Shown here one piece after another: positions 3,183 through 39,300 of a stretch of DNA of 64,000 nt. The stretch lies in the NCBI GenBank assembly GCA_000091205.1, contig AP006492.2; one strand, given 5' to 3'. A program made the position numbers and the translations under genes. The notes beneath the pieces are model-generated. The model made no database searches, had not been told where the DNA came from, and worked only from the letters and a program-made list of their open reading frames with translations. Source of the DNA: Cyanidioschyzon merolae (taxonomy: Eukaryota). Numbering within the stretch: position 1 is the first letter of the stretch; each line of letters starts with the position of its first letter.

Positions 3183-4424
3183 TGTTCAGCTGCATCTTCT
3201 TCTGTTTGGATTGCTTGCTTTTACTCCTTCTCCTCTACTTGATGTGCTTCCATAGTTGTGATTGTTATACTTCGCACCCGTTTCCTCTCGGAACTTAGAC
3301 GTACAGGGTAGACGGTTGCACTGGAACCCGTCTTTTTCATCTATGAGCGGATCTAGCGTTCCTCAGGTTCCATGTCGTTAACTCCGCCATGGCGAGCACG
3401 CCCACGGACTCTCGCGCACCTGTACGCTCGCTCTGGTGCACGAGCACACAACCAATGGTTCAGCCCAGAGCGGACAACGGTAGATAACGACGTGTCGAAG
3501 CGCCTATTTGGCCCAGATGCGAACGGCCCGTGTACTGATCCGCCCGCGTAAAACTGGCGTTTGAGAACAGAGAAGACGTCTTTGACTCCACCGAACCAGG
3601 ACAGCTGGACTGGAACAAAGAGCAGTTCGACGTACCGATAAGCTGCAAAGTCCCGGGCTGCTTTTGAGCAGCGCAAGGCGGCGGCGTCGAAGAGCAGGGC
3701 ACAAGTACATGGTAAGGAGAATTCATGGGATGCCTCGACGAAGAATGAAGTGATGAATGATGACGTCCGTTTTGCGATTCGTAGGCGGTCACACAATCGC
3801 ATTCCCTCCAGGGATGATGTTGTTATCAAGAGGCTCGCTTGTGTCTTTTCTACGAACGGCGGTCTGCCGCTCTCTGAGTACTAACGTACGAATCTGCCAT
3901 TCCTCCCGAATGCCGTTTCATCGAGTGAGACGAATGCCCGTGCTTCCTTTCATTTGCATTCGCGTTTCACGACAAAGTCAATGGTGCGTTGTTCAGCGCG
4001 CGATGCTATTCGATAGAATCGCGCATTTTTCTTTATCCATCCGTTTCTCTTGATTGCCGATTATATATGAAAGTCACAGAAGCTTCGTCCCCAATAGGTT
4101 CTTCAGTATGGTTTCTTATAAACCGCATTTAGTGGAATGGATGAACCTTTAGACAGAGTTTGACAAGTTCTTTCTAAGGCGGACGATGTTCAGGATAAGA
4201 ACTACGCACAGAGTGGTGTATCCACTTGCCCACAGTGGCATAACGAACTTGCAAAAGTAAATCCGTTTCCTCCAAGCCAGCGCCGACTGCGCAGTATCCT
4301 TCCGCATCATTTCCGCGTCTACTAGATACATGCTATCTTTGGAACCGTTCAATGAAAACAAACAAACAAACAAAGCGAAGAAGGATGCACAGATACAGAC
4401 GTCCCAGAATGCACTGACCTGGGT

Positions 4425-6979: not shown

Positions 6980-9490
6980 GCACGTGCACGCCCGACACCG
7001 CCAAACGTCTTTCAAAAGAAAAACGGTGTCACCGGCGGTGTAGAGGCGGCGAAACCCGCCTTAGACTAGACGTCATTAACTAACTTGCAGACGCCTCCCC
7101 GTCTTTTTCGACCGGCCACCCACTACTGCTTCCCATTTCTTCTCATATAGTTCCACTTTCAGTGACTGTCCAACAAAGAGCTCTCTTGTCTGCTCTGGAG
7201 GTCTTGTCTCCAGCACCGCTCATTTCCTTATATTGATGGCAGCATTAAAGTCGCGGTTCACAAACTCCATACGTTTCTTGCCATCACTGGTTGCACTTAC
7301 TAATGCAAAGAGTCCACGAACTTTCGCCCTCCTTTCCATTAGCTCCTCCGTCAGCGGTCCGTACTTTGCTATGTCCTTAGGGCTCCGCTGGCACATTTTC
7401 ATCTCGACCCTCTGAAGTTTACAACCCAGCTCATGGTGTGTATAAGATGTTCGGAACTCGTCTGCAGGTATTGTAACAAAACGCCGTGCACACTCCTTGT
7501 ACGTTCTCGTCGTTGGAGCTGGCGGAGTCCCTTTTTGGGTCATCCAGTGCACCGCTCTGTGCGCTACGACGAGCCTTTGAGTCTTGTCCTCTTTCGAGGC
7601 GCTCAACTCATGGAAAAAGTTCGCGAATGCACGCTGCTTTCCACAATACAGATTCATACACAGACGAGCTCACATGGGCTTTGTATACTCCTCCCACAGC
7701 GCCTCCCAATGAGCAACACGAACTTCCATGAATTTCCGAAAAGCTGTAAAGTCCGCTCCTCGGCTCGTCACCTCGCTCATAGCTTCCAGGTGCTCTTTCA
7801 TTCCTGAATTCCACGTCTCAGTTTTCTTCCTCGCATTCATGGTTCCCGATTCCCGGTAATATCTCGCATTCGAGAGCTTGAACACACGCATGTCTTTCTG
7901 ACGTAATTTGCCGTCAGTACCGTCTTCCGCACGCTTGGGTGCAGCAAGGGCTAGGATGTTCGTGCTCCCAGGGTCAAGGCCAACGACCAAGTCGTTCTCC
8001 TGCACCTCCTGCGTCGCAGGAACTGTCTCCTTGTTTTCTCCATGCTTCGTCACGGGCGAAGCCGAAGGCATGATAGGATGATCCGCATTCAAGCGCCGAC
8101 ACTGTAAGCATATGGATACCCCATCGATATGGATGATCCCTGTGAATGCTTTTTTCGTGCTCGTATTGAGACGTTTGAAATAGAAGATAGTCTTCCAATG
8201 AGTCTCCCGGTTATCGCCGGTGAACTCTATCTGCCTTACATCGAATTCCAGACTGATCTCCATCATGATGCCGTAAAGGACTCTGGAGTCGATCGTCACG
8301 AAGCATGACTTGACGTTGCACAACTGAAAGACGTTGAAGCACTTGCCCTGAAGCGCAGTCTTCCGTTTCACCGACTCTTCACGTTTTCCCCGCTCAGCTC
8401 CATCTACGCCTTGCGTTCGAATTCTCGGTTCAGGAGCACGATATAGCGCAGGATGAGGGGATAACATCTTTTTTCATATCTGATACCCTCTCTGCTCGAT
8501 CGACCTGCCCCAAGACTGCACGATGCTCTTTAATAGCCGGACGGATTACAGAAGCTTCGTTTCTGCTTCGGCGTGACGTCTTCTCGTCGAAAAATTCGAT
8601 CTGCTGTTCGTGCTGGCGATAAGTCCTGATTTCATTGATGCTAGCCCACATCCCCTGGCGAGAGAGGTCGGGGTTCAGCGCAAACATAGTGCGTATCATG
8701 AAACGTTCGAAGTTCACGATCATATGGTTCTTCAGGTCCGTGAGGTACTTAATTGCCCCGCAGGTGTATATATTCGAGTCACGCTCGTGTCGAGTGCCGT
8801 CGAAGCGGAATTTGGAGCGATTTGCATGGAGGGCATGCGGTCGCTCAGTTTCCGTCGACGTTTCCTCTGTGCCAAGCCTCAGGTGACGAATAAAGGCCTG
8901 GTCGAAAAATTCTTCCGGAACCTGGACTGTTTTCATGTGCGTCACGTCCCGAAACATCTCCTTCACCAAATGCACTAGCCATGACGAAGCCTTTATAAAA
9001 CTCATAGAGTACGACTCGACGCAGTTTCTAATGGCGTCTCGTAACTTTTCCTCGTACGGATCCTTGATATGTCGACGAAGACAGGCTTTCGCCACCATCT
9101 CGTCGTACTGTCATCTTGCTCGCAGCCTTTGTCGTAGGGCCCCCTGCCTCAGCTTTTTCGTCTTTTCCAGTTCCTTTTTGCTCTGGCTGCCGGCGACTAC
9201 AGCCCTCAAAGATCCTCCACTTTCATTTCCATAACTCTTCTTTTTTTATGTTTTTGAGCAAAAACACACTTTGAACGCTTCTGCTATAAACCGCGAATAG
9301 TCACTTGAATCCACTCCCATGAGGGTCAAAGCACAATTGAACTGAAAAACTCTACCTTGCTACGACTTGAAAGCAAATACAACTTGCACGTTAGAACTAC
9401 AGATCAACGAATAGTCAGGATTGCGTTCCCTTTCAACGGCGATACGCGCGTCGTGTCTCATGGATGCCAGAGCTCTCGGGTGCGCGTATC
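6980..9490 (-). mobile_element. Fanzor/TnpB-like element, copy A (~2.5 kb)
   Basis: Alignable with copies B, C and D from the right end (~85 nt past the protein stop; homology with B ends about 6980) to the left end (about 9485). Carries the TnpB/Fanzor-like ORF listed below. Confidence 0.6.
7063..9098 (-). pseudogene. Fanzor1/TnpB-like RuvC nuclease ORF, copy A (~630 aa, interrupted)
   Basis: ATG at 9098, with an in-frame TGA four codons upstream. RuvC-I 'NDLVVGLDPGSTNILALA'. Cys/His cluster 'KECARRF...HHELGCKLQRVEMKMC'. RuvC-III 'KKRMEFVNRDFNAAINIRK'. Defects: one frameshift near 8430-8467; in-frame TGA at 7670-7672 aligned to Trp (TGG) in copy B; TGA at 7220-7222 directly after 'NIRK'; TAATGA near the conserved C-terminal extension. 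The shared stop TAA at 7063-7065 matches copy B. Confidence 0.6.
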
Positions 9491-10203
9491 GGCCACGCTA
9501 TGTAGAACAAAGAACAGAGACTCACTACTAACTCGCAACGAGATAACAATTTCTTTTCCCCACTATGATAAATGTTAAAAGTGGGCAACGGTTTCCGCAC
9601 TGTCGAACGTTTACCTTCTCGGCGGAAGGTCCCACGAGCCAGACGAGTCTGCCGGGCTAGTGCTTCGTGCACAAGCGAGCGACGAGTTCAGTGGCGAGAC
9701 CTGAGCAGCTCGTCCGCAACGTAGTTTATTCTGGGACTAGGATCGGGTAGCCTGCGTCTGGGCGTCACTCTTGTTGCAGTGGCCTCCTAGTATATCAATT
9801 CGGATTGCCGCCTGTACTAGGTCCGTCTGCGCTGCTTGCAGGCTCCCAGAATGATTATGAATCCCAGATCCCCATCAGGTGAAGCTTTCCTCGATCCGAC
9901 GCCCTCTGTGGTTTGGCAACGCCGTTCTGCCTCCCTGCAGCATCTGCCCAGAGGTTTAGGCGCCATCGCCGATGCTCAAAGCAGGCAATCGGCACACGAT
10001 AGAACATACGAAACGACCAGTACATCCGAGAGAAAGTATAAGTAATGGAACTAGAAGACAGGGCACAGCATAATAAGTGTCTTCCCGTTTGCCTGTGACG
10101 ATCCCGCAATCTGGGATCCATGGACCATAGAGACAATGTACAACCATGAAAAATACGGCCCAAGAGGCAGCCAGCGCATCCTTTTTGACCGTTATGTACA
10201 TAA

Positions 10204-17488: not shown

Positions 17489-18697
17489 CTAGGTCGCGTA
17501 GAGTACTTCAGCAGGCGAGTAATCGTCAAAAGCTCGCGGTGAGCGCCGATGCTCCAGTCGCAAGTGCTGGTGCACGTCCGGCCATACCTGCACACAATTT
17601 GGTCCATACGCTTCAGCAACAGCATGAACAGCTGTGTAGTACACCTGGTCAGTACGTACGAAGCACTTTTCACGGTTCAGGTGCGGTTTGCAAACGCGAT
17701 CAACGGGAGCGGCAGCACCTAGCCATGGCCTCCGGAGCGACGTCTGAGAGGCTTCGCTCCAGTTCAGAGCCGGTTCAATAACGTCGTAACGCCACCAGCA
17801 AGGCACTCGAACACTGCACAGGTTAATCGGTAGTTGTCTTTCAATGTCATCCAGCACATGCAGTACCGGGCTTTCCGGATTAGAGCGCAGCGCATTTTCG
17901 CTCGGAACGATGTACTCGTCCACATCTGCGAAAAGAATCCATTTGAATATGCCGCGATTCCGCCACAAACAATCGTTCATGGCTGCAATCTGAACATGAT
18001 TCCAGTGCACGCCCTTTGGTGGACGAAATGGCCACGCTATGATCGATACATTCGCAGGCACATCGGCGAGTCGCTCCGTCAATTCATCCCTAAGCTCCAT
18101 TATTCTGGAACCACAGGCATCCGGCTCATTGAGATAGATGAAAAAATTCCGAATGCCGACCCTTGTATGGTGTATGATCCACGACAGGAGGAGGCTCTGC
18201 GAAACGGAGCGTTCTACGTTGTTCGGCCGACGGTTCTCCTGAGACTCAGGGCGCAACCGCAGCATCGTCCAGGCAGCGAGATGTAACTGCTCGTTTGGAG
18301 CAGTTCCTTCGAAAGCATCGGCGTCTGGTTTGCACTGCAGAATGAGCACTTCGTTTTGCGGGTCTAGGCGTGGCGGGAGAACGCCACCGGGCGCACACCA
18401 CGTCGCTGCTGCTTGCTCTACAGTGCGCCGGTCCAGGGGCCCGCGAGCGCTCAAGACCAGCGTTTCAAGACCGTCACGTGACCGGAACCTGTCAAGGACG
18501 CGTAGCTTCGCGTAGGAGGTGATTCCTGTAGTCTCCTGGGTAAAACGGCATGCTTCTAGTATGGAAAGCGTGCGCTCGAGAGCATCGCCCGACCTGGAGT
18601 GAAGTAATACCAGGAGCGTCAGCAGCAGGACGCAACCGGACAGCAGTCTTCTCGGGAAACCTGTTCCAGACGCACCTCCGACACCAACAACAAACAT
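17489..18697 (-). CDS. Type II membrane glycosyltransferase, GT92 (DUF23)-like
   Basis: ATG at 18697 ('MFVVGVGGASGTGFPRRLLSGCVLLLTLLVLLHS' signal anchor). Luminal domain with a DxD-type motif in 'WILFADVDEYIVP', GT92-like. Its start codon lies inside sequence homologous to the Fanzor right end of copies A and C. Confidence 0.45.
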   Translation of the reverse strand: MFVVGVGGASGTGFPRRLLSGCVLLLTLLVLLHSRSGDALERTLSILEACRFTQETTGITSYAKLRVLDRFRSRDGLETLVLSARGPLDRRTVEQAAATWCAPGGVLPPRLDPQNEVLILQCKPDADAFEGTAPNEQLHLAAWTMLRLRPESQENRRPNNVERSVSQSLLLSWIIHHTRVGIRNFFIYLNEPDACGSRIMELRDELTERLADVPANVSIIAWPFRPPKGVHWNHVQIAAMNDCLWRNRGIFKWILFADVDEYIVPSENALRSNPESPVLHVLDDIERQLPINLCSVRVPCWWRYDVIEPALNWSEASQTSLRRPWLGAAAPVDRVCKPHLNREKCFVRTDQVYYTAVHAVAEAYGPNCVQVWPDVHQHLRLEHRRSPRAFDDYSPAEVLYAT

Positions 18698-21286
18698 CTC
18701 CCAAAAGAAAAACGTTGTGACCGCCAGTGGTGTACAGTAGTGGCGAGTGCTCCGCCTTAGACTAGACGTCGCCAACTGACGAGCTGATGCCTTCCAGTCT
18801 TTTTCGACCGGCCACCTACAACGGCTTCCAATTTTTTCTCATATAATCCCACTTTGAGTGGTTGTCCCTTAAAATTCTCTCTTGACAGCTGTGGAGGTTT
18901 TTTCTCCATCACCGCGCATCTCCTGATATTGATGGCGGTGTTAAAATCTCGGTTCACAAACTCCATACGTTTCTCGCCATTGTTGGTACTCACCAATGCA
19001 AGCAATCCTCGAACTTTCGCCATCCTTTCCATCTGCTCCTCCGTCAGCGGTCCGTATTTTCTTATCCTCAGGGCTCCTCATGCACATTCCTACCTCCACT
19101 CTCTGAAGTAGACACCCCAGCTCATGGTGTGTATACGACGTTCGAAACTCACCTACAGGTATTGTTACAAAGCGCCTTGCGCACTCCTTATACGCACTCG
19201 TCGTTGGAGCTGGCGTAGTTCCTTTTTGGGTCTTCCAGCGCCCTGCTCCGTATGCTACTACGAGCCTCTGACTTTTTTTATCCTCCTTCAAGGCGCTCAT
19301 CTGATTGAAAACGTTCGCAAATGCCCGCTGCCTCTCTCCGTATAGACTCATACGCAGACGAGCCCACCGGGGCATGGTATACTCCTTCCACAGTGCGTCC
19401 CAATGGGCAACGCGAACTTCCATGAATTTCCGAAAAGCAGTAAAGTCCGCTCCTCAGCTCGTGATCTCCCTCATAGCTTCGAGGTGATCCTTCATTCCTG
19501 CATTCCACCTCTCATTTGTCTTCCTTGCATTCATTATATCCGATTCTAGACAGTATCTCGCTCTCGAGAACCTCAAAAGACGCATGTCTTTCTGAGGTAA
19601 GTTGCCGTCAGTACCATCATCCGCACGCTTGGGAGCAGCGATGGTTATGATATTCGTATTCCCAGGGTCCGCGCCGACGACAAAGTCGTTATCTTGCACC
19701 TCCTGCGTCGCAAGATCCGCCTCCTTCTTTTCTGCATTCTTCGCCGCGCCAACGAAAGTCGTTATCCTGCACCTCCTGTGCCGCAGGATCCGCCTCCTTC
19801 TCACATTCATGGTTCGTCACGGGCGCAGCCGAGGGCGGGACTGGACGATCTCTCTTCAACCGCCGATAGTGTATACACAAGGCTACTCCATCGGTATCGA
19901 TCATCCCAGTGAGTACCTTTTGTTTGCTCACCCTCAGACGTTTGAAATCGAAGATATTCTTCCAGAACGTCTCCCGGTTTTCACCGTAGAATTCCTCCCT
20001 GCTAACATCGAACTCCGGACTGATCTCCTTCATGATGCCATGAAGGACTGCGGAGTCGATACTCACAAAATGTGACTTGATGGTGCACATCGGAACGATG
20101 TAGAAGCGCTTACCCATCAGGAAAGCCTTCCGTCTGTCCCAGTCTTCAGTTTTCCCCACTCAGCTTCATTTCTGCCTTGCGTTCGAGTTCTCGGTCCAGA
20201 AACACGAAATAACATAGGATGAGGCGATAGTATCTTCCCTTATCTTTTTCAACGCTGATATCTTGTCTGTTGGATTCGGCAGCCCCATGACTGCACGGTG
20301 CTCTTGTATATCCGCACGGATGACGGAGACCTTATTCGTGCTCTGGTTTGACGCCTTCTTGTCGACAAATTCGACGTCATCTTCACGCTTGCGATCGTTC
20401 GTGATGCCATTGATAATCGCTGATATTCCTTTGGGACAGATGCCCGGGTAGAGTGCAAACAAGGCGCGTATCATGTAACGTTCGAGGTTCACTGTCAAAT
20501 TGTTCTTCAGGTTCGCGGTATACTTTATCGCCCCGTATATGTAAATACCCCGGTCACCGCTTTATCGATTACTCTCGAGGCGGAATTCCGCCAAGTTTTC
20601 GTGGAGGGCATGCACTGGCTCATTTTCCCCCGCGCTTACTCTGTACCAAGCATCAGCTGACGAATAAACGTCGCATCGAAAACGCCGTCCGGGAACCTCG
20701 ACCGTTTCCATGTGCGTCACTTCGCGATACATCTCCCTCGCCAAATGCATCAGTCCTGACGAGGCCTTGACAATACTCTTGGAGTACGAGTCGATACGTT
20801 TTTCGATAGCGTTTCGCTAGTGTTCCCTGTAAGGATCCTTGATATGTTTAAGAAGAAAGGTTTTCACCAGCATCTCGTTGTACGGTTGTAGTTCTTGCGG
20901 CCATCGACTTGGGATATCCCCTTTTTGCGTTTTCTTCTTATGCTGTTCTTCTGAACTCGGTACTGTTTTTTTCTTTTCTGGCAGCCAGCGACACTGGGGC
21001 GTCAGGATCGCCGACTTGCTTTTTCATAACATCCTTTTTTTGTTTTTTTTTGAAAAGAACGCTCCATCAACGCCTCTGATATAGACCGCTAAATATCACT
21101 TGGATAAACTAAATTGAGCGTTGAAACATAATTGACCTGAAAAGTGTACTCTGTTATGACTTTAACGAATATACAACTTGTAATTGAGAGCAACACGCTC
21201 AAGATCGCGATCGCGTTTCCCTTCACCAACGACATGCGCGTGGTGTCTCATACCTGCCAGATATGGAGGTGCGCGTATCGACCGCT
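18672..21286 (-). mobile_element. Fanzor/TnpB-like element, copy B
   Basis: Right end about 18672, left end at 21286, where LINE sequence starts. Over roughly 18890-21040 it is about 98-99% identical to copy C (offset +10177). Its left end differs from the left ends of A, C and D. Confidence 0.6.
18757..20871 (-). pseudogene. Fanzor1/TnpB-like nuclease ORF, copy B (multiple frame breaks)
   Basis: Fragments align colinearly to copy A: N-terminus 'MLVKTFLLKHIKDPYREH*' (in-frame TAG), RuvC-I '[18 protein letters not shown]', Cys/His cluster, RuvC-III 'MEFVNRDFNTAINIRR', then a 60-aa extension ending '...VVGGRSKKTGRHQLVSWRRLV*'. Contains an internal ~57-bp tandem duplication ('QEVQDNDF' twice) and several in-frame stops. 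Confidence 0.6.
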
Positions 21287-22570
21287 ATAATCCCTTGGCA
21301 CACGGACTCGAACTCCAAATACCCTCGACAGAAGGTATAGCAGCAGGCTGCCGGGTACGTATATGGGCCAAAGGGCCCGCCATGCGCACCTCTTTGAGTC
21401 GGATTTTCATGCAGACCCCTACGCACCTCAAGAACACTTGGACGAAATTGACGCAGATTGGGCTGAAGCGCCTATTAGACGAACATACGCTCCCCAATCG
21501 TTCCCCAGGAATGTACAAGGCTCCCGCCGCCTCAAGCGAACGGTCCAAACAACAATATGGGAACGTAGACACGGAACCAGTCGCGCCAGTAACGCCGGCT
21601 TGATCCTATACCGGAGCTACAACCTAGCATACACATGCAAGTACTGGTGGGAGGCGCTGGAATTCCCGGGACTTGCTCGAGGTACCCAGTGGCTCGCCAA
21701 AATCCGCGTTGGTGGCTTCTGGCTAGCGGCACCGGCTCTAAGCCGTATAGGGACACTGGAATCGCACTGGGAGTCACACTGTCCCTGCTATCGAGACGAT
21801 AACCCCGAGACGCTGACATATTTAGGCTTACAGTGCCCGCGCTGGAAGCAGGAGCGCAGCGAGCTCCTTGAAGGACAGCAGCAGCTGGGCATCACCATGA
21901 TATCCGAGGGCCGGACACTCACTTTGAGAGCAGCACTGGCAACTGATGGTCCGCTAACAGATCCTCAGCGCTCATTAGTGGCGAACAAACTCACATGCTA
22001 CCTTCCAAGCGGAAGGTCCAGCGGATCGGATGCGCACACGGGCCCAGTGCTCTCTGCGCCTACCTTCTGTATGGGTGTCAAACACAAACCCGCATTGCCA
22101 ACCGACGACAACGCATTCCATGCATGATCACGAAAGAGAGAGGCGGCTCCCACGATATATCCTAACAGTCAAGTTTCTCCAGCGTGTCGAGCAGCGAAGA
22201 CAAGCCTGCATCCGCAGACTGTCCGAGCACACACTGACGACGAGACCCGATTCTACGTCGGGTGAAGCGCACCTTGAGCCGACGCCCTCTGGGGTATAGA
22301 AAAGCCGTTCTGTCTCCATGATGCATCTGTACCAAAGGTAAAGACGCTATTGCGGACAATTAGGACAGGTTCTGGGCACACGATAGGACGTATGAGATGA
22401 CCAGAATATCCGAGATGAAGGATAGGTAATTTGACGTGGAGGTACGGGGGTTGATGGATACCCCACCGCGCACTGTAAAAAAATAACGCAAAAAGTAAGA
22501 AAAGAAAAATGCGCACAATCGGAGAACGCTGGCCCAAGTAAACGCGTTGTCCGTGAAAAAGGACTCATCG
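21287..22570 (+). mobile_element. Non-LTR retrotransposon (LINE) 3' fragment: C-terminal RT/zf-RVT region plus 3' UTR
   Basis: About 93% aa identity to the 3' part of the longer minus-strand LINE at 31400-35100 (ORF 21363..22127 versus 31844..32614). Starts abruptly at the copy-B left end. Its 3' UTR extends further than in the inverted copy; the exact 3' end (before 22700) was not resolved. Confidence 0.6.
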
Positions 22571-24189: not shown

Positions 24190-27100
24190 TTGGTCTTTGT
24201 TTGGGACGATCTCGCTCGATGCGGGGAATCATGTCGAGTCACGAGAGTTTCCAGCAGAGCACGTCTGGTTGCACCGGAATCTCAGGATTGTCTCGAGCAC
24301 AGCGACAGGATTTTCTGCATCATTTGGATGTTGGTTCGTTTGGCGCATAAACGACTTGATGAGCAAATGCACCGTCACACCAGTATCCAAGTTAGTGTCT
24401 GACCAATCAGCAGGGACAGGAGCAAACGGGCGCGTCGTTCGTCAACCGCGTGCATCACCGGCTCTCCTCAACCGAAAACATGCATAAGCCGCAAATGCAC
24501 TATAGAATGTCTTACTGCACATTGGAATACCGTGGTTGTTCCCAAATTGCCCAGCGGAATCGTACACTTTGTCCATAAACGGTGCTCTGGCCTCGCTGGA
24601 TTGCTGAAACGTACCATATCAGTGTCTTGCGCTTGGTTGTAATCCCGTACCCTCCTTCATAATCGCTGATTTCTTTCATCGAAAGTCTTCAGAATTTGCC
24701 CACAATGCCCTCATGGAATACGAAACGATTTTCCCGAAACATCGCTCAATAGAAAGTTCTTGGACGCTCCACGAGCACAAAACGCTTCCGCATGTTAATC
24801 GCGGCGTTGAACTCAAGGAACACGAAGTGCTCGTGCGCACCGTTGCGGGTGGAATCTCATCATGGTACACTCTACGTTTTCGATTGTCTCACCATTTGAC
24901 GATAGCTCAGCATACTGCACACCATCCGATACATCCGGTTCTGTGCCACGCTGTTTTCATCGAACACTTTCAGCGCACAAGTGTGCTATTGATGTGTTTT
25001 TGCCATCCTGACATATCGATGGGATTCGTATCGAATCGATTCCAGCACTTTTTCTCGTTAGCGTCGAGGAGGCAGGGTTGCTGCATTTGGGCACCGCAGC
25101 TCGTTCGGCGTCCTAGACTAGCACGAAACGACGCTACTTTCCAACCCAATGAACAAGTAAGAAAGTGCGCGTTACATTCTGCCACATAACCTGGTTCATC
25201 TCCGACTCCAGCGCTCACTCATTTCCTCCCGCAAAAAGCCTTCGCTTGAACCATTTGGATGCTCGTGTTCTTTCTGATTGAGGCGTACAAAGCACAACGT
25301 CCTGCTCGATGTGGTACTCATTGCATCGAGCTGGGTCCCGAAGCTGCCACCTCACGTGTTCGTATGGCGCCTGGTATCCATCATATTCGACTGTCGAAGA
25401 CGTCGAGCCGTGGGAAAGTAAGGATGTATTGAAAGCCTGTCTCGAGCATCATTTCCGTTGTCTCAAGAAAAACTGGATCGGAACTGTTCCGGAGAATTGT
25501 GGACAGCTGGCAGCCGTGTGTCCGAAACGCCTACGAGCATTTGCTTGTTGAGGGACGTTACAGCGAAATATGCTTGGGGGGCATCCCTCGAGTAAGAGGG
25601 AACGCGATCCCTGCCAGTGCCCCGCTTCTCATGTTTGAGAGGATTCCCGCGATTGATACGTTTTCAGACGGAGACCTTGCCAAGGATTTCAGACCGATTT
25701 TTCCATTCCAACTCTTTGCGCTCTTTGTGTGTCCTCGCCTCTTTTTGAAACAATTATCCCCATCTTAGGCTGGTGGGTTCTTCCGCTCCTCCGTTACTTG
25801 GTGGAGTATCATGTATGTAGTCGCGATGCTCCATATTCGTTTTCGCGTGATTTAGAGGTACAGGCTCTACGATGCCATTAAAGCTGACGTTTTCTGCCTA
25901 CGTTGCTATTAGTTCTTCGATAAAGTTTGGCTATCTGTTGCGCTGCGAGCTCGCTGATGGACAGAGAGGTGCCCTTCGGTTCGCTCCCGCGCAACAGAAG
26001 AGGAGCAACGCAGCAGTTCACTACTTGTGACATCACAGAACGACTAGTCGAAGGACGAATGTGCGCGCTTCAGCGTCGCAGATGCGAACGATTCTTTTAT
26101 GTATCTGTGTGCGTAAGCATTGCATCGGACAACAAGGAGGACGCCTCTGACTGGAATCAGCCCGGGGCAAATGGATGGCATGATGCGCAGCTCAACACAC
26201 GTTTCAGCTGCATTCTTGTTGAAGGCTTTTGAGCAACAAAGTGCGAATTCGTCTGACAGCAGGACAGAAAATTTTGTGGAAAAGAAGCCGCGAAGACTGC
26301 TTCATTGAAGAATGAGATAACGAATGATTACGATCGGTCAGCGTTTTGCAGACGAACGCACTATAGGATTGCCGCTAGAGCTGGTGTTGTCTGAATGCTC
26401 GCCCACGTTTTCTTTACGAACAGCGGTCTGCTTATCTTTTTGGCATCAATGTACATTTCTACCATTTTTCTTGAATACAAACGTATCCTTTGCGATGCAC
26501 ACATGGCCCTGATGTGATGAAGATTCGCGTTTTGTTAAAAACGCGATAGTATGTTGTCCAACGCGCGACGGTCCCGCATAGAGGCTTTGGTTTTCCTTAG
26601 TTCTTCCGCGTCGCTTTACTGCCGGTCCCATCATCGATACGGAAACATCAAATTCCGGAGATTTTTGGTATATTTTTCATTGAATTCGCATGGAGCGGAA
26701 CATATTGACGAAGAGGAAGTGGTGCAGATAGTGTTTTATGAATTATGTTTTGGTTGAATGCGGTTCGGGATATTGACCACGAGAAGGCCTGTCCATCCAG
26801 ATGCTGACTACATAGTAACTGACTCGCTCTTGTAAGGTCGTTTGTTGGCGGGCTAGTTGTGACTACATTGGGTCTTTCTGCATCCTCTATCGCGTTTATG
26901 ATACACATTCCTTCTGTTCAATTTCTGCGACAGAAACAAACGAAAACAAAAAAGCCTCACAGACTTGGATATTCCAGAAATCAGTGCTCCGAGCATCGGG
27001 CATCGACGAACAGAGGCATTGCGGCGTGCATCAGTCGTGGTTACTGCACACAAGCCCTCAGGTTCCAGTTGGATTATTTTGTCTGATGCGCAGAAGCAGC

Positions 27101-28849: not shown

Positions 28850-31400
28850 TCCGCGGCACCCCACGCAACGCGCCAACAACGCCGTTCTGAACTCGAACGA
28901 CGTCGAACGTGTACTGTATTGGCGACCAGTGCTCTAGACAAGAAGTCTCCAACTGATGTGCAGAGACCTCTCAGTTTTCTTGGACCGGCCACCTACTACG
29001 GCTTCCAACCTTTTCTCATATAATTCCACTTTGAGCGGTTGTCCCTTAAAATTCTCTCTTGTCAGCTGTGGAGGTTTTTTCTCCATCACCGCGCATCTCC
29101 TGATATTGATGGCGGTGTTAAAATCTCGGTTCACAAACTCCATACGTTTCTCGCCATTGTTGGTACTCACCAATGCAAGCAATCCTCGAACTTTCGCCAT
29201 CCTTTCCATCTGCTCCTCCGTCAGCGGTCCGTATTTTTTTATCCTCAGGGCTCCTCATGCACATTCCTACCTCCACTCTCTGAAGTAGACACCCCAGCTC
29301 ATGGTGTGTATACGACGTTCGAAACTCACCTACAGGTATTGTTACAAAGCGCCTTGCGCACTCCTTATACGCACTCGTCGTTGGAGCTGGCGTAGTTCCT
29401 TTTTGGGTCTTCCAGCGCCCTGCTCCGTATGCTACTACGAGCCTCTGACTTTTTTTATCCTCCTTCAAGGCGCTCATCTGATTGAAAACGTTCGCAAATG
29501 CCCGCTGCCTCTCTCCGTATAGACTCATACGCAGACGAGCCCACCGGGGCATGGTATACTCCTTCCACAGTGCGTCCCAATGGGCAACGCGAACTTCCAT
29601 GAATTTCCGAAAAGCAGTAAAGTCCGCTCCTCAGCTCGTGATCTCCCTCATAGCTTCGAGGTGATCCTTCATTCCTGCATTCCACCTCTCATTTGTCTTC
29701 CTTGCATTCATTATATCCGATTCTAGACAGTATCTCGCTCTCGAGAACCTCAAAAGACGCATGTCTTTCTGAGGTAAGTTGCCGTCAGTACCATCATCCG
29801 CACGCTTGGGAGCAGCGATGGTTATGATATTCGTATTCCCAGGGACCGCGCCGACGACAAAGTCGTTATCTTGCACTTTCGGGGTCACAGGACCCGCCTC
29901 CTTCTTTTCTGCATTCTTCGCCGCGCCAACGAAAGTCGTTATCCTGCACCTCCTGTGCCGCAGGATCCGCCTCCTTCTCACATTCATGGTTCGTCACGGG
30001 CGCAGCCGAGGGCGGGACTGGACGATCTCTCTTCAACCGCCGATAGTGTATACACAAGGCTACTCCATCGGTATCGATCATCCCAGTGAGTACCTTTTGT
30101 TTGCTCACCCTCAGACGTTTGAAATCGAAGATATTCTTCCAGAACGTCTCCCGGTTTTCACCGTAGAATTCCTCCCTGCTAACATCGAACTCCGGACTGA
30201 TCTCCTTCATGATGCCATGAAGGACTGCGGAGTCGATACTCACAAAATGTGACTTGATGGTGCACATCGGAACGATGTAGAAGCGCTTACCCATCAGGAA
30301 AGCCTTCCGTCTGTCCCAGTCTTCAGTTTTCCCCACTCAGCTTCATTTCTGCCTTGCGTTCGAGTTCTCGGTCCAGAAACACGAAATAACATAGGATGAG
30401 GCGATAGTATCTTCCCTTATCTTTTTCAACGCTGATATCTTGTCTGTTGGATTCGGCAGCCCCATGACTGCACGGTGCTCTTGTATATCCGCACGGATGA
30501 CGGAGACCTTATTCGTGCTCTGGTTTGACGCCTTCTTGTCGACAAATTCGACGTCATCTTCACGCTTGCGATCGTTCGTGATGCCATTGATAATCGCTGA
30601 TATTCCTTTGGGACAGATGCCCGGGTAGAGTGCAAACAAGGCGCGTATCATGTAACGTTCGAGGTTCACTGTCAAATTGTTCTTCAGGTTCGCGGTATAC
30701 TTTATCGCCCCGTATATGTAAATACCCCGGTCACCGCTTTATCGATTACTCTCGAGGCGGAATTCCGCCAAGTTTTCGTGGAGGGCATGCACTGGCTCAT
30801 TTTCCCCCGCGCTTACTCTGTACCAAGCATCAGCTGACGAATAAACGTCGCATCGAAAACGCCGTCCGGGAACCTCGACCGTTTCCATGTGCGTCACTTC
30901 GCGATACATCTCCCTCGCCAAATGCATCAGTCCTGACGAGGCCTTGACAATACTCTTGGAGTACGAGTCGATACGTTTTTCGATAGCGTTTCGCTAGTGT
31001 TCCCTGTAAGGATCCTTGATATGTTTAAGAAGAAAGGTTTTCACCAGCATCTCGTTGTACGGTTGTAGTTCTTGCGGCCATCGACTTGGAATATCCCCTT
31101 TTTGCGTTTTCTTCTTATGCTGTTCTTCTGAACTCGGTACTGTTTTTTTTCTTTTCTGGCAGCCAGCGACACTGGGGCGTCAGGATCGCCGACTTGCTTT
31201 TTCATAACTTCCTTTTTAAGTTTTTATAAATCAGCCCTCCGTGAACGCTTCTGTTATATACTGAGAAAAACAATCGAATATTTTCACTTGAGGGTTGAAA
31301 CACAATCGAACTGAAAACTATACATGCCTATGAAGTTAACAAAAATACAACTTTGACATTAGAGCTACATGCTAGATATCAAGATCACGTTTCCCTTTAA
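28850..31400 (-). mobile_element. Fanzor/TnpB-like element, copy C
   Basis: Near-identical to copy B over about 29067-31217. Its left end is about 55 nt shorter than in A and B and abuts the 3' UTR of the minus-strand LINE at about 31400. The right end lies about 30 bp upstream of the exosome-subunit ATG. Confidence 0.6.
28934..31048 (-). pseudogene. Fanzor1/TnpB-like nuclease ORF, copy C (frame breaks; RuvC-I Asp replaced)
   Basis: Same fragment set as copy B. RuvC-I reads '[15 protein letters not shown]' (Asp to Val). RuvC-III 'NRDFNTAINI' is retained. C-terminal extension '...RSKKTERSLHISWRLLV*'. Confidence 0.6.
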
Positions 31401-34400
31401 CGGCGGCATGTTTTTCATTAACAACGCGTTTACTTGGGCCAGCGTTCTCCGATTGTGCGCATTTTTCTTTTCTTACTTTTTGCGTTATTTTTTTACAGTG
31501 CGCGGTGGGGTATCCATCAACCCCCGTACCTCCACGTCACATTACCTATACTTCATCTCGGATATTCTGGTCATCTCATACGTCCTATCGTGTGCCCAGA
31601 ACCTGTCCTAATTGTCCGCAATAGCGTCTTTACCTTTGGTACAGATGCATCATGGAGACAGAACGGCTTTTCTATACCACAAAGGGCGTCGGCTCAAGGT
31701 GCGCTTCACCCGACGTAGAATCGGGTCTCGTTGTCAGTGTGTGCTCGGACAGTCTGCGGATGCAGGCTTGTCTTCGCTGCTCGACACGCTGGAGAAACTT
31801 GACTGTTAGGATATATCGTGGGAGCCGCCTCTCTCTTTCGAGATCATGCATGGAATGCGTTGTCGTCGGTTGGCAATGCGGGTTTGTGTTTGACACCCAT
31901 ACAGAAGGTAGGCGCAGAGAGCACTGGGCCCGTGTGCGCATCCGATCCGCTGGACCTTCCGCCTAGAAGGTAGCACGTGAGTTTGTTCGCCACTAATGAG
32001 CGCTGAGGCTCCGTTAGCGGACCATCAGTTGCCAGTGCTGCTCTCAAAGTGAGTGTCCGGCCCTCGGCTATCACGGTGATGCTCAGCTGCTGCTGTCCTG
32101 CAAGGAGCTCGCTGCGCTCCTGCTTCGAGCGCGGGCACTGTAAGCCTAAATATGTCAGCGTCTCCGGGTTATCGTTTCCGCAGCAGGAACAGTGTGACTC
32201 CCAGTGCGATTCCAGTGTCCCTATACGGCTTAGAGCCCGTGCTGGTAGCCAGAAGCCACCAACGCGGATTTTCGCGAGCCACTGGGTACCTCGAGCAAGC
32301 CCCGGAAATTCCAGCACCTCCCACCAGTACTTGCATGTGTATGCTAGGTTGTAGTTCCGGTATAGAGTCAAGCCGGCGTTACTGGCGCGACTGGTTCCGT
32401 GTCTACGTTCCCATATTGTTGTTTGGACCGTTCGCTTGAGGCGGCGGGAGCCTTGTACATTCCTGGGGATCGATTGGGGAGCGTGTTGTCTCCTAAGAGG
32501 CGCTTCAGCCCAATCTGCGTCGATTTCATCCAAGTGTTCTTGCGGTGCGTTCGGGTCTGCATGAAAATCCGACTCAAAGAGGTGCGCGTGGCGGGCCCTT
32601 TGGCCCGTATACATGCCCGGCAGCCTGCTGCTATCGCTTCTATTGAGAGTATTTGGAGTTCAAGTCCGAGTGCCAGCGCGGTGGTTGCCCTGCTCTGCAT
32701 TGAGCATCCAACAACAACGAGTCTCATTGCCCCGTTGGCGGCTGTCTGCGGACGCGAGGCATTTGTGTGCTTCATGCCGCACCACTCAGCACCCCAGGTC
32801 GCAGGCTGGGTGATACACATCCTTAGTGCCCTCGTACGAATTGCTATGCGGATAGAGGGGTCGGATGGGAATGAGCGTGCGATCGCTGTACCTCTATGCA
32901 TCTTGGCGATCATCTCGTCGACGTGTGCCTTTTCGTCGAGCGTCGGCGTGAGACCGACCCCCAGGTAGCGATATTTTTCCACGATCGGGATTTCCGGATT
33001 CTGCAACCGCCACGAGCGATTGCGAATGCTCTGCGAGTCTCCATGGATGACCATGACGCCGCACTTCGATGCTCCTATGCTCATCTCCCAGCGATCGGCC
33101 CAGTCGCTGACTTGTTGCATGCTAGCCGCAAGCGTTTCAGGGGCGGGTGCCAACAGCACGACATCGTCCGCAACTAGACGGCCTGCGAGGCGGTTCCTAT
33201 GTGAGGGCTCCTCATCGGGCATCTCCACAGTCTATCCACGGCACCTCAAGCCCGTATTGTCTGCAGTTGTTCAGCAGATCGTTGATGAAGATGTTGAAAA
33301 GGAGCGGGGATGCGCGCTCGCCCTGCCGCAGTCCACGGCGGATTCTTCTGGAAGGGGTTCTTGAGCTGTCGCCCAGTCGGATGCGCATCCATGAGTCTGC
33401 ATAGAGCGCACGGAAGAACGCTAAGCACTTTCCGGAGACTCCGGCGCGTTCCATCTTCAGAAATGGAGCCTCGTGCGGGACCGTGTCAAAGGCCTTTTGA
33501 AAGTCAATGAAGCATACGTAAGTTGGTTGTTGGCCGCTAATGGAGCGACGTTGCACCACTTCAGTTAGGGTCAGGACATGGCTCATGCACTCCTCGTGGC
33601 TCCGGAATCCAGCCTGTTCTGGGGCGAAGAACTTGCGTTCCTGGAGGCCTCTCTGGATCCGGTTCGTGGGAATGGCGCAAAGTAGCTTCATGATTGACGG
33701 GATGAGGCGCATAGAGCGGTAGTTGTTCATGTCTGTGTGGGAGTCCTTTTTGAGGATCGGTACGACCTCAGCAGTCCTCCATACATCCGGGATGTACGCC
33801 TCTTCGAACATGCGTTGGATGAGCTCCACAAGGCGTTTGCCTAAGCTTGTGTCAGATTCATCTGGTATTGATGGTGTCCCTGTTGTCCCGTCTTTTGGGG
33901 TCACCAGTTTCATCCACTCCGCAGGGATACCGTCGATGCCAGGTGTTTTGCGGTTGCATGACCTTAAGAGGGTCCGGACAGATTCAGGCCAGAAGATTGG
34001 GTCGTTCCATTCCGGTACCGATTCGAGGCGCGGTAGTTCTGCGGCATACTGGTGCCAATAGATTGGGTCTTGGCAGTGCCCAGTTGCTTCTTCATGCAGC
34101 TCTGTGCCGTGGTCCGTCCAGGCCTCATTCACTGAGGCACGCTCCGTCCTCAGCGCTTCCTCATAAACGATTGGTGTGAGCCCCAGGCACTTTTTTGGTG
34201 GGTCCAGTCTCGGTCGAATGTAGCGCCAGGTCTCATCTTCGTTGGTGCTCTCTAGCATAGATTTCGCCAGGGAGGCGATTTCGCGGTTTCGATCCTCTCG
34301 TTTGTCTTCTCTGGAAAGTTTCTTCTTTCTTTTGATAGCTTCTTCATGTTGCGCCTGTAGCGCCGTTAGGACTGCCTTCGCTTCCTTGTCTCCGGCGTTG

Positions 34401-35100
34401 ACGCGTATGGCGGTGTGGTTGACGATCTGATAGAGTCGGTGGCGCTCGTCAATCCGGGTATTGGTACGTCGTTTCAGGCACTGAGGTTTGCAACTGTTGC
34501 GTTCTGGTGCAAGCAGTCCCAGCTCTCCGGCAATCTTCTGATTCCCATCTACAAACTCGCGTGCCAATTGGTCTAAAGATTTGTATGCACGGCTTTTCGG
34601 ATCTTCAGCGCTGTGAGTAGGTGACTTGGTTTGGCGACGGCTTTCTTGAGTTCCTGCTGGGGTGCTCTTTCGGGGACGACTTGTGATGGGCTCGCTGGAG
34701 CCCCCGCCTGTGGGCTCGTTCGGGAGTTCTTCTTTCTATTCTTCTGTTTTTCTCTTGCTGGTTTGCTTCTTCATCGGGCTCTTTCCTGAGCTACATTCTC
34801 TGGTTACTTTGCATCTAGGTGGATCATGAGGTTTCTGTGTCTCCTTCTCCGTGTCTGGTTGGGTCTCTTTTCCTTTTGTACAGTCCTCGACTTGTATCAG
34901 TTCTTCATTACTGTACTGGTAATTCGATATCTCGTAGTTCAATACCGAGGCGATCCCACAAATATTCCATGATGCGAAACCTATCGAGTCGTAGCGCATA
35001 AGGGAATAGGAGTAACGCTGCGGTACTCGAGAGATACGTTGTCGATTGAGATGCACCCTCCACGGAGTGTGTGAGAGCACATGCCACCAGCGCCTCCTAC
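31400..35100 (-). mobile_element. Non-LTR retrotransposon (LINE), longer copy, lacking most of the endonuclease domain
   Basis: Minus-strand ORFs 33212..34567 and 32368..33228 carry reverse-transcriptase motifs. ORF 31844..32614 carries a zf-RVT-like 'HWESHCSCCGNDNPETLTYLGLQCP'. Near 34970 there is an APE-like remnant ('FASWNICGIAS') with no following endonuclease domain. Its 3' UTR (about 31400-31843) is the inverted repeat of 22128-22570. Confidence 0.6.
31844..34567 (-). pseudogene. LINE ORF2-like reverse transcriptase (frameshifted into three pieces)
   Basis: RT blocks: 'YRSMRLIPSIMKLL', 'PEQAGFRSHEECMSHVL', 'CFIDFQKAFDTVPHE', 'GLRQGERASPLLFNIFINDL' and a YxDD-like region; C-terminal zf-RVT. 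Reading-frame breaks at 33212-33228 and 32368-32614. Confidence 0.55.
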
Positions 35101-36379: not shown

Positions 36380-39300
36380 ATGCGACCGAATATGCAACGA
36401 TTATGGAATATTTTTGCTCTCGGGCTTGTGCTGTTCCTTCTTGCGAGACTTTCGCAGACGCTTTTAATAACAACCGTGAGGGACGGTGAAGCTGAGGCTA
36501 TAAAACGTTCCGCTGCTCGCCATGAGCTATGGGATGATTGTTCTCCGTTCAGGCGCATAGAGGGTTCTTGGGCGCGGAGATGGCGAAGTGTCGTTTTCCA
36601 TAGGGAAACTTGCGCTCGCTTCCGTGTGACGGACAGAGAACTGGTGAGCGTCGACGGGGAATCTGACAGCTGCGGCATTTCAGGAGTATGCGTTAGCCCA
36701 TCCACCGAACTCGAACGATGGTCTCAACTACCGGGGAAGAGAGTAGCGGGACACGGGGAAGTGTTGCGTTTCTCGAACGTTCCAACGCACTGGAAAAGAA
36801 TGGACTGTGTCCACGGCTCGCTGAAAGGCAACAGCATTCCCGTTAACGTAGAAAACGGGAAATATTGTATTTTACCCGATGGACAGGGGTTCAACGTGTT
36901 ATCGCCTGCCGCGGAAATCGAGCGGAGTGAAAGTCCTGCGGAAACAGCCGCGGACGAACTGGGATCTCATGAAGGTACTTATTCATGCCAGCCTGCCAGG
37001 CAGGTTGTGGAACCATGCTCTCCCGAAAGAAGGAGACTGGTAAAGGAAGCTTCGGGAGTAAGCAAGACTCTAGGCAGCTGCTTTTCGACCTGGCGGTCCT
37101 GGCGGTCCTGGTGGTCCTGGCAGTTCAGGTACCCCTGGTAGTTCGGATGGTGCCGGGGGTCCCGGAGGCGGTGGCCCCGGAGGCGGTGGCCCCGGAGGCG
37201 GTGGCCCTGGTGGCGGTGGCCCTGGTGGCGGTGGCCCTGGTGGCGGTGGCCCTGGTGGCGGTGGCCCTGGTGGCGGAGGTCCCGCTTCAGCTTCCGCTTC
37301 AGCTTCCGCTTCAGCTTCCGCTTCAGCAAGTGCATCGTACTCGCTGAGCTACTACGACTCGAGGAGCGCCTCAGCCTCAGCCTCAGCCTCAGCCTCAGCC
37401 TCAGCCTCCGCGTCGGCGTCGGCTAGCGCATCGTACTCGCTGAGCTACTATGACTCGAAGAGCGCTTCAGCCTCGGCGTCAGAGTCAGCCTCAGGCTCAG
37501 CCTCGGCAAGTGCCTCTTACTCGCTGAGCTACTATGACTCGAAGAGCGCATCAGTGTCGGCATCAGCCTCGGCGTCAGCCTCTGCGTCATCTTCGGCAAG
37601 TGCGTCGTACTCGCTGAGCTTTTATGATTCAAAGAGTGCTTCAGCCTCAGCATCATCTTCGGCAAGTGCGTCGTACTCGCTGAGCTACTATGACTCGAAG
37701 AGCGCTTCAGCCTCGGCGTCAGCCTCAGCATCATCTTCAGCGAGTGCGTCGTACTCGCTGAGCTACTATGACTCAAAGAGCGCTTCGGCCTCAGCATCAT
37801 ATTCGGCAAGTGCCTCGTATTCGCTGAGCTACTATGACTCGAAGAGCGCTTCGGCCTCAGCATCATCTTCGGCGTCGTCATCAGCCTCGGCGTCCGCAAG
37901 TGCATCCTACTCGCTGAGCTACTATGACTCGAAGAGCGCATCAGTGTCGGCATCAGCCTCCGCGTCTGCTTCAGCATCATATTCGGCAAGTGCCTTGTAC
38001 TCGCTGAGCTTTTATGATTCGAAGAGCGCTTCGGCGTCTGCGTCAGCTTCGGCGTCGTCATCAGCCTCGGCGTCCGCAAGTGCATCGTACTCGCTGAGCT
38101 ACTATGACTCGAAGAGCGCATCAGTGTCGGCGTCAGCCTCCGCGTCTGCTTCAGCATCATATTCGGCAAGTGCCTCGTACTCGCTGAGCTTTTATGATTC
38201 GAAGAGCGCTTCGGCGTCTGCGTCAGCTTCGGCAAGTGCGTCGTACTCGCTGAGCTACTATGACTCGAAGAGCGCTTCGGCCTCAGCATCATCTTCGGCA
38301 AGTGCGTCGTACTCGCTGAGCTACTATGACTCGAAGAGCGCTTCAGCCTCGGCGTCAGCCTCAGCATCATCTTCAGCGAGTGCGTCATACTCGCTGAGCT
38401 ACTATGACTCAAAGAGCGCTTCAGCCTCGGCGTCAGCCTCAGCATCATCTTCGGCAAGTGCGTCGTACTCGCTGAGCTACTATGACTCGAAGAGCGCTTC
38501 AGTGTCGGCGTCTGCTTCGGCGTCGTCATCAGCCTCGGCGTCCGCAAGTGCATCCTACTCGCTGAGCTACTATGACTCGAAGAGCGCATCAGTGTCGGCG
38601 TCAGCCTCCGCGTCTGCTTCAGCATCATCTTCGGCAAGTGCCTCGTACTCGCTGAGCTTTTATGATTCGAAGAGCGCTTCAGTGTCGGCGTCTGCTTCGG
38701 CGTCGTCGTCAGCCTCGGCGTCAGCAAGTGCATCGTATTCGCTGAGCTACTATGACTCTAAGAGTGCTTCAGCCTCGGCGTCAGCCTCAGCATCGTCTTC
38801 AGCAAGTGCGTCGTACTCGCTGAGCTACTATGACTCGAAGAGCGCTTCAGCCTCGGCGTCAGCCTCTGCATCATATTCGGCAAGTGCCTCTTACTCGCTG
38901 AGCTACTATGACTCGAAGAGCGCTTCAGGCTCGGCGTCAGCCTCAGCATCATCTTCGGCGAGTGCGTCGTACTCGCTGAGCTACTATGACTCGAAGAGCG
39001 CTTCAGGCTCGGCGTCAGCCTCAGCATCATCTTCAGCGAGTGCGTCGTACTCGCTGAGCTACTATGACTCAAAGAGCGCTTCGGCGTCAGCATCATCTTC
39101 GGCAAGTGCGTCGTATTCGCTGAGCTACTATGACTCGAAGAGCGCTTCGGCGTCTGCGTCAGCTTCGGCGTCGTCATCAGCCTCGGCGTCCGCAAGTGCA
39201 TCGTACTCGCTGAGCTACTATGACTCAAAGAGCGCATCAGTGTCGGCGTCAGCCTCCGCGTCTGCTTCAGCATCATATTCGGCAAGTGCCTCGTACTCGC

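Follow-up and report, generated by a model that had tools for sequence, protein, structure and literature searches.

Interlocus gene conversion and concerted evolution are known in dispersed repeats, such as yeast Ty elements, and in duplicated genes. Here we describe two dead copies, B and C, of the Fanzor1 repeat CMe-1A in a 64-kb stretch of the Cyanidioschyzon merolae genome (64,000 nucleotides of contig AP006492.2, assembly GCA_000091205.1; hereafter, the window), the middle parts of which are near-identical, very probably as the result of repeated gene conversion between the two.

CMe-1A is one Fanzor1 family listed for C. merolae, with about 150 copies that are each about 80% identical to a consensus of about 3 kb; neither inverted repeats nor duplications of the target were detected, and its 5′ 635 bp are common to another repeat (Bao & Jurka 2013, PMC3627910). 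In the finished-genome paper, 253 copies of a 3.2-kb interspersed repeat are described, the truncated open reading frame (ORF) of which resembles WSV486 of the shrimp white spot syndrome virus (Nozaki 2007, PMC1955436), and one Fanzor protein is listed in the genome of that virus (Bao & Jurka, PMC3627910). Intact CMe-1A copies have been reported, as has transcription of the family (PMC3627910, PMC1955436). For the Fanzor1 element MCi-2 of Mucor circinelloides, the copies are 99% identical over the Fanzor-coding part and differ in their 5′ ends, the cause of which was left open (PMC3627910).

Four copies (A–D) were found in the window, all on the minus strand. Judged by sequence, they are degenerate copies of the known CMe-1A/Fanzor1 repeat of C. 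merolae:

6986–10110, minus strand: copy A, CMe-1A; 73% identical to B, not homogenised with B or C.
18672–21288, minus strand: copy B, CMe-1A, with a degenerate Fanzor1 gene; collinear with A 6986–9501.
28909–31410, minus strand: copy C, CMe-1A; 5′ side truncated by a long interspersed nuclear element (LINE); aligns with B 18730–21236.
60654–63769, minus strand: copy D, CMe-1A; 66% identical to A, B, and C, not homogenised.

The PGK (BAM80396.1), RNase PH-like (BAM80397.1), and PMT-like (BAM80406.1) proteins encoded in the window are exact matches to proteins of C. merolae 10D. The copies A–D resemble CMe-1A (Fanzor1-1_CMe; the '253-copy novel interspersed repeat') in that both occur in C. 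merolae as units of about 3 kb without terminal inverted repeats, contain a TnpB/Fanzor-type ORF with RuvC-I, RuvC-II, and RuvC-III motifs, are about 70–80% alike among themselves, and share their 5′ part with another repeat. In contrast, the published CMe-1A copies are described as uniformly old (about 80% identical to the consensus), and a 99.5%-identical core flanked by ends that are 70–80% alike, as seen for B and C, is not mentioned (PMC3627910, PMC1955436).

In a first self-comparison, B and C matched on the same strand over 18758–21223 and 28935–31397 with 96.6% identity, and a more sensitive comparison extended the match, again on the same strand, to 18730–21236 and 28909–31410. The match consists of a core and two ends:

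18886–21030, minus strand: homogenised core in B; 11 differing columns of 2146 against C in a global alignment, with identical runs of 1196, 606, and 175 bp.
29063–31208, minus strand: homogenised core in C, from the same global alignment; 23–32 differing sites against seven orthologous C copies of relatives, but 11 against the B copy of 10D.
18730–18885, minus strand: locus-specific 3′ end of B (last ~43 codons and 3′ terminus); 29/156 differences against C.
28909–29062, minus strand: locus-specific 3′ end of C; matches the orthologous C copies except at 28995–29008.
21031–21236, minus strand: locus-specific 5′ upstream region of B; 62/206 differences against C.
31209–31410, minus strand: locus-specific 5′ upstream region of C; 0/202 differences against the orthologous contigs L001, L013, L014, and L015.

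The original prediction had placed the near-identity at about 18890–21040 with an offset of 10177, and both the coordinates and the offset were right; the offset becomes 10178 past a 1-nt indel in a T-run at 20966. The divergence is not uniform across the elements, amounting to 0.5% in the core versus 19–30% in the ends (70–81% identity; Fisher's test of core versus ends, p=3e-68). The longest identical run, 1196 bp, compares with a maximum of 321 in 20,000 shufflings of the same 102 differences (p<=5e-5). The step in divergence is thus abrupt beyond chance, as expected of a conversion tract. Seven of the 11 core differences are packed in 19700–19716, and the others are at 19061, 19668, 20913, and the T-run indel. 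When the other pairs (A–B, A–C, A–D, B–D, and C–D) were subjected to the same conversion test, no excess identical run was observed; the longest runs, 26 bp for A–B and 21–25 bp for D against A, B, and C, are within chance.

The B gene is on the minus strand, with its ATG at 21029–21027 and its stop at 18759–18757, so that what had been called the right end is the 5′ upstream region, and the identity block ends 2–11 nt upstream of the ATG. At the 3′ terminus (18692–18758), A and B are 70% and C and D 69% identical, whereas B and C are only 49% identical, which indicates that B and C belong to different CMe-1A sub-lineages.

No similarity was found beyond 18730/28909 and 21236/31410, where a forced alignment gave about 40% identity and BLAST gave no match, and the left neighbours differ, being a GT92 glycosyltransferase for B and RNase PH for C. 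On the other side, both elements meet LINE sequences:

21296–22560, plus strand: LINE fragment X, 5′-truncated, adjoining B; 1265 bp, ORF2 C-terminal Cys/His region.
31411–~35500 (outer end approximate), minus strand: longer LINE copy (X′ and reverse transcriptase ORFs), abutting C; RVT_1 matches at 33212–34567 and 32368–33228.

Motifs of a non-LTR (long terminal repeat) reverse transcriptase were seen in the frame translation of the LINE beside C, the 3′ end of which meets C at 31411. The two LINE copies are 95.4% identical over 1265 bp in opposite orientation (21296–22560 versus 32675–31411), thereby forming inverted repeats that bracket PGK, RNase PH, and C. Therefore, the earlier statement that both the ends and the flanking DNA are about 70–80% similar stands for the ends, whereas the DNA beyond the element is unrelated, with the inverted LINE as the sole exception. 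A plain segmental duplication, which had already been argued against, was rejected, as the flanking unique DNA is not duplicated and the neighbouring LINEs are mutually inverted. A recent common master copy was also rejected: the identity stops short of both termini, and the termini group B with A and C with D.

The orthologous loci of related strains were examined in short-read contigs from hot-spring metagenomes, which were found by exact-protein look-ups and differ from 10D by 0.29–0.60% in single-copy DNA; a state called private to 10D is private relative to these contigs. The B locus is covered by L007, L008, L009, and L021 on the left flank and by L019 and the end of L002 on the right. 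The C locus is covered over the whole element by L001, L013, and L015, on the left by L003 and L016, and on the right by L014, L017, L018, and L020. No match was obtained in exact-protein look-ups with the 160-aa and both 118-aa core ORFs, and a 30-mer spanning the junction of the repeat, when scanned against metagenome DNA, gave no contig beyond one already found.

The right end of the 10D C copy showed no differences from L001, L013, L014, and L015 over 202 sites, the left end of the 10D B copy differed from L008 at 2 of 156 sites, and the B-type 5′ upstream region (21031–21236) is carried by L002 and L019. These comparisons indicate that the element ends are locus-specific and stable across strains. 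Conversely, the cores differ more between strains than between the two loci of 10D: the 10D C core differs from the C contigs L001 and L013–L016 at 23–32 of 2075–2149 sites, and the 10D B core from the B orthologue L008 at 33 of 1318, so that paralogues within 10D are 0.5% different versus 1.1–2.5% for orthologues between strains. This greater likeness of the B and C paralogues than of their orthologues shows a pattern of concerted evolution. In addition, B and C of 10D share two states, at 20091 and 20518, that are private to this strain. At a divergence of about 0.4%, about 5 differences would be expected in the 1196-bp run and none was seen, from which the last exchange is estimated to be younger than the split from the nearest relative.

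Two regions bear on the direction of transfer. At 20118–20149, the 10D C copy has the allele of the 10D B copy and of the B orthologue L008, and the other allele was seen in seven C-locus contigs (L001, L013, L014, L015, L017, L018, and L020). The second region is in the otherwise C-specific end:

28995–29008 (B 18818–18831), minus strand: B-type micro-tract in the C-specific end; four diagnostic sites.

Here the 10D C copy has the state of B and of the orthologues L007 and L008, the four C-left contigs reaching 18818–18831 (L001, L002, L013, and L015) have the other state, and C-type sites border the micro-tract at 18805 and 18832. Since B carries no C alleles at either region, the transfer was non-reciprocal.

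In two of the relatives, B and C are less homogenised than in 10D. B and C of the same sample differ at 14 of 334 columns (ERZ27247228) and 11 of 207 (ERZ27247235), that is, by 4–5%, versus 0/334 and 1/204 in 10D over those same spans. Different strains carry a 9-site haplotype (18929–18985) at one locus or the other; L008 has it between B-specific sites with a spacing of only 176 bp, too little for a chimera at k=141. The contigs L016 (18832–21039) and L019 (19008–21056) start and stop at the block edges, the mark of a repeat whose limits are identical in those strains. Because the same block edges are present in other strains together with mosaic variants, the exchange has been repeated rather than limited to one conversion event. 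The mosaic of short tracts is compatible with either patchy heteroduplex repair or several events.

Both B and C are dead relics, not genes. When the intact Fanzor1 homologue P0168 was aligned to B by tblastn, the matches fell into three frames with 5 in-frame stops, and five in-frame stops and two frame changes are at the same positions (+10177) in B and C, in agreement with the predicted sharing of frameshifts. Copies A and D are also broken, and none of A–D has an intact ORF. The RuvC motifs of B are still recognisable as GADPG (Asp codon 19669–19667; context VVGADPG), GEFRTS (Glu codon 19150–19148), and NRDFNTAINI (Asp codon 18948–18946); the columns of all three residues are invariant in the homologous proteins and align with solved Fanzor1 structures, the RuvC-I Asp column, invariant in 46 full-length homologous proteins, with their DPG. 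A cluster of four changes at 20817–20822 (TAG.G versus ATC.T, plus strand) was observed in L001, L014, L017, and L018; it overlaps the stop codon 20817–20819 and may remove this stop in some strains. This cluster, together with a repeat unit of either 73 or 75 bp (see below), suggests that the set of disabling lesions differs between strains.

The part of the core preceding RuvC-I contains a tandem repeat and most of the differences between B and C:

19680–19825 (units 19680–19752 and 19753–19825), minus strand: two units of a ~24–25-aa variable-number repeat; 73-bp period, out of frame.
19700–19716 (C: 29877–29893), minus strand: dense 7-site patch, private to 10D B, in the last tandem-repeat unit.
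29844–29846 GTC (Val) in C and 19667–19669 GAC (Asp) in B, minus strand: RuvC-I codon; single-nucleotide polymorphism (SNP) 19668/29845 in the middle base of the codon.

In B, the two repeat units match at 54 of 73 positions in a direct offset comparison, and the 73-bp repeat was not reported by Tandem Repeats Finder. The duplication described in the original prediction ('QEVQDNDF' twice) is thus present and common to B and C, with a period of 73 bp rather than about 57 bp. It is directly N-terminal to the RuvC-I strand, where the homologous proteins have 1–6 units and A and D one unit; the unit is 75 bp and in frame in L016 and L019, and 73 bp and frame-shifting in 10D. In the Fanzor1 proteins of this family (homologues P0046–P0070), this acidic repeat of about 24–25 residues (..KDEDEKEADPATQEVEDNDFVV..) occurs in 1–6 units directly before the RuvC-I strand.

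The dense patch, which had been noted at about this position, comprises 7 differences and changes EADLATQEV (B) to EAGPVTPKV (C). The states C,C,T,C,G,A,T were seen in the 10D B copy only, whereas C and all 9 other covering contigs, including the B-locus contigs L008 and L019, have the other state at at least 5 of the 7 sites, with the exceptions of 19704 (T in three contigs, N in one) and 19716 (T in one). As the state is private to the 10D B copy, and the two B-locus orthologues (L008 for the left flank, L019 for the right flank) have the other one, it is most simply read as derived in this copy. The patch is thus probably a later change in B rather than a stretch left unconverted, and the proposed heteroduplex remnant is not favoured. 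Copy A and the neighbouring repeat unit were rejected as donors of the patch, each matching at just 5 of 7 sites, and the patch is perhaps a micro-import from another family member. Neither does it change the RuvC-I Asp, as had been supposed: the Asp/Val difference comes from an SNP of its own at 19668, at a distance of 32 nt from the patch. The A allele (Val) is also present in L016 and L019 and is therefore an older variant unrelated to the patch. In a gene with five stops, both the patch and the Asp/Val change are without functional meaning.

From these results, we consider it very likely that B and C are old, independent, dead CMe-1A insertions, 10,177 bp apart in direct orientation, whose 2.15-kb middles have been kept near-identical by repeated non-reciprocal interlocus gene conversion, with at least part of the last transfer in 10D going from B to C. 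The exchange pattern read from the contigs is recurrent and patchy, with short and long tracts; the latest exchange took place in the lineage of 10D, with B as the donor and C as the recipient in at least part of it. The proposal of gene conversion between neighbouring copies is supported by the orthologue comparison, the shared sites private to 10D, the B-type alleles in the 10D C copy, and the less homogenised relatives. A double-strand break within one relic would be repaired from the nearby paralogue. C. merolae is haploid, so that a break before replication has only paralogues as templates, and homologous repair would be the default in a haploid cell without classical end joining. C. merolae has been reported to be without classical non-homologous end joining (PMC6635534) and, in the laboratory, to carry out homologous recombination and gene conversion efficiently (PMC3764038). 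If the direct repeats crossed over, PGK and RNase PH would be deleted or duplicated, and only non-crossover products would be expected to persist. Given that the copies are pseudogenes, the process would be a by-product of repair, without function.

Several points weigh against this conclusion. Ordinary family members share perfect matches of just about 25 bp, and with copies only about 70–75% alike the first exchange would have been very inefficient. The right edge lies 2–11 nt from the ATG in all strains, and no family-level drop in similarity is seen there; for a random tract end, this position would be an unexplained coincidence. There is one deep B orthologue per side (L008 left, L019 right), and the two disagree at 20118–20149, so that the polarity rests on few sequences. 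In addition, more than one strain may be present in a metagenome sample, and contigs assembled from short reads can be chimeric across the repeat, as L002 and the left part of L001 probably are. Finally, the donor comparison covers a 64-kb window of a 16.5-Mb genome with ~150–253 copies.

With such a copy number, the same other CMe-1A copy could have overwritten both B and C, or all three could exchange, in which case there would be no neighbour effect. The clustered variants at 18974–18985, 19700–19716, 20136–20149, and 20818–20822 look like imports from diverged copies, and the source of the 10D B patch is neither C nor clearly A. However, the contigs recovered through the exact 102-aa core ORF (10 shown of 13 on record) all have B- or C-type flanks and no third flank, the B-type alleles in the 10D C copy match the B orthologue L008, and, with every published copy at about 80% identity to the consensus, no young sub-family is reported (PMC3627910). 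A third donor is thus unlikely. The reverse order of events, in which B and C are recent products of one master, were once identical, and had their ends later overwritten by diverged family members, would draw on the readiness of C. merolae to recombine (PMC3764038) and on the resemblance of the ends to other sub-lineages, B to A and C to D. This order is highly improbable: it needs at least two conversions from donors about 70% identical, each reaching exactly to the terminus, whereas in all strains each locus has its own stable ends (0/202 and 2/156), the core is what varies and swaps, and both insertions are older than all sampled strains.

Copying driven by the element itself, through Fanzor1-guided cleavage and homing-type repair or with reverse-transcribed B RNA as the template, is given only a very slight chance. 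The start of the block almost at the ATG, the reported intact and transcribed CMe-1A copies, the LINEs adjoining both elements, and the three LINE copies with intact reverse transcriptase genome-wide would suit it. Conversely, B and C themselves are dead, a complementary DNA would contain the 3′ end, which is precisely the unshared part, and the patchy bidirectional mosaics fit ordinary heteroduplex repair. A TnpB/Fanzor-type guide RNA, moreover, targets the DNA flanking the element and not its interior. An assembly artefact, or selection holding the sequence constant, is vanishingly improbable. Near-identical 2-kb repeats are classic sites of collapse, and an earlier C. merolae assembly had misassemblies; however, 10D is finished telomere to telomere with gap closure based on bacterial artificial chromosomes, the 11 differences and the unique flanks are retained, and independent contigs of the relatives reproduce all four junctions; assembly collapse was rejected. 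Purifying selection is ruled out by the five stops, the two frameshifts, the identity at all codon positions, and the orthologue divergence of 1.1–2.5%; there was also no match to known RNA families or transfer RNAs.

An extension of the gene-conversion reading is that B and C recombine with crossover in some natural strains, thereby excising or tandemly amplifying the 10.2-kb PGK/RNase PH unit, with breaks made by intact Fanzor1 nucleases of the family. This idea is quite improbable; if true, dead transposon copies would serve, in a haploid alga lacking end joining, as substrates for recombination seeded by a nuclease. It is raised by the closing of L002 after exactly one B-to-C period. This contig (ERZ27247235; 10,169 bp) contains, in order, part of the LINE 3′ region, PGK, RNase PH, the left end of C, the core, the right end of B, and part of the LINE 5′ region, and ends 10 bp before its own start, as one closed period. 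The closure is most likely a graph cycle from a collapsed repeat, and a tandem duplication or an excised circle would look alike.

The assignment to Fanzor1 was obtained through homologous proteins. The stitched C-terminal half of B gave 262 homologues, all unnamed and metagenomic, and a profile from 16 of these gave 1428 relatives, many of which are 600–740 aa long. A profile of 46 full-length relatives matched the Fanzor1 structures of Parasitella (9cf0; E=1.1e-19), Spizellomyces (SpuFz1, 8gkh; 5e-11), and Guillardia (GtFz1, 9cer; 2.5e-5), and the three RuvC motifs of the relatives were aligned with those of the solved structures. The profile of the 16 closest homologues gave nothing in the same PDB search, so that the broader profile was needed. 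No Pfam match was found for all ORF pieces and the stitched proteins, and for 10 full-length relatives there was one weak match to PF07282 and nothing else. AlphaFold2, run from a shallow alignment, gave no usable model (pLDDT, the predicted local distance difference test score, 31). No match was obtained with Rfam and a transfer RNA scan over the whole window. For a guide (omega) RNA at the 3′ end of the element, the four independent copies of the window are too few for a covariation analysis.

The LINE and CMe-1A sequences are related at one further point. A ~190-bp module of the LINE 3′ end (22255–22440 and 31540–31741) recurs with about 70% similarity at the far 5′ ends of A (9870–10060) and D (63550–63700), where it is antisense to the Fanzor ORF. 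The CMe-1A 5′ module, known in the literature as TE-N2_CMe, may thus be a LINE tail, and CMe-1A, which is without inverted repeats or target duplications, might have been moved by the LINE machinery. When L001 1–1713 was compared with 21296–22560 and 31411–33117 of the window, the LINE left of PGK was a mosaic, X′-like to about 21620 and then X-like, and reached 445 bp beyond its extent in 10D. Either the contig is chimeric, or recombination or an inversion has taken place between the two oppositely oriented LINEs.

Two further relics, at 1926–4416 and 24487–26986, are 57% alike in DNA and represent a second, more distant Fanzor-like family; they gave weak tblastn matches to P0168 at 2864–2163 and 25417–24761, with many stops. 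The relic at 24487–26986 sits between B and C. For the PMT-like mannosyltransferase at 58442–60139 (minus strand), near-identical paralogues are encoded on other chromosomes of C. merolae (BAM80644, BAM81152, and BAM82295), as part of the sets of duplicated genes that have been described in this genome. An 1842-aa ORF (37554–43082, plus strand) contains a very large tandem-repeat array at 37283–42380, the units of which are about 75–83% alike at many offsets.

Taken together, these results indicate that, in the very compact and haploid genome of C. merolae, which is deficient in end joining, transposon relics near each other are homogenised by ectopic recombination, and that the homogenisation of B and C is still going on among natural strains. 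The age of CMe-1A copies would then not be readable from pairwise identity, short-read assemblies of these loci would be error-prone, and gene-targeting constructs near such repeats may recombine ectopically.

When B and C are set beside known cases of interlocus conversion, they are alike in their sharp tract edges, non-homologous flanks, greater likeness of paralogues than of orthologues, patchy mosaics, non-reciprocal transfer, and preference for nearby copies on the same chromosome. In contrast to usual conversion, B and C were probably only about 70–75% alike before the exchange, the host is haploid and without classical end joining, and the same block edges persist across strains. MCi-2 likewise has a near-identical Fanzor-coding core and a differing 5′ end; however, its 5′ regions of 1–3 kb are unrelated and its core is shared by 11 copies, whereas in B and C both ends are homologous but diverged, and two neighbours are involved.

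For TnpB in IS200/IS605 elements, Meers et al. reportedly found in 2023 that the nuclease, with the element's own guide RNA, cuts the emptied donor site and that the whole element is restored by homologous repair. B and C have in common with that case a TnpB-family nuclease gene in a mobile element and copying by homologous break repair, and differ in being dead, in having an internal tract, and in the absence of any link between the breaks and Fanzor. Overall, the population evidence from the related strains lends new and good support to the gene-conversion reading. Both the element family and the process are already known, and the B/C pair is a clean but ordinary case of gene conversion that opens no new question.

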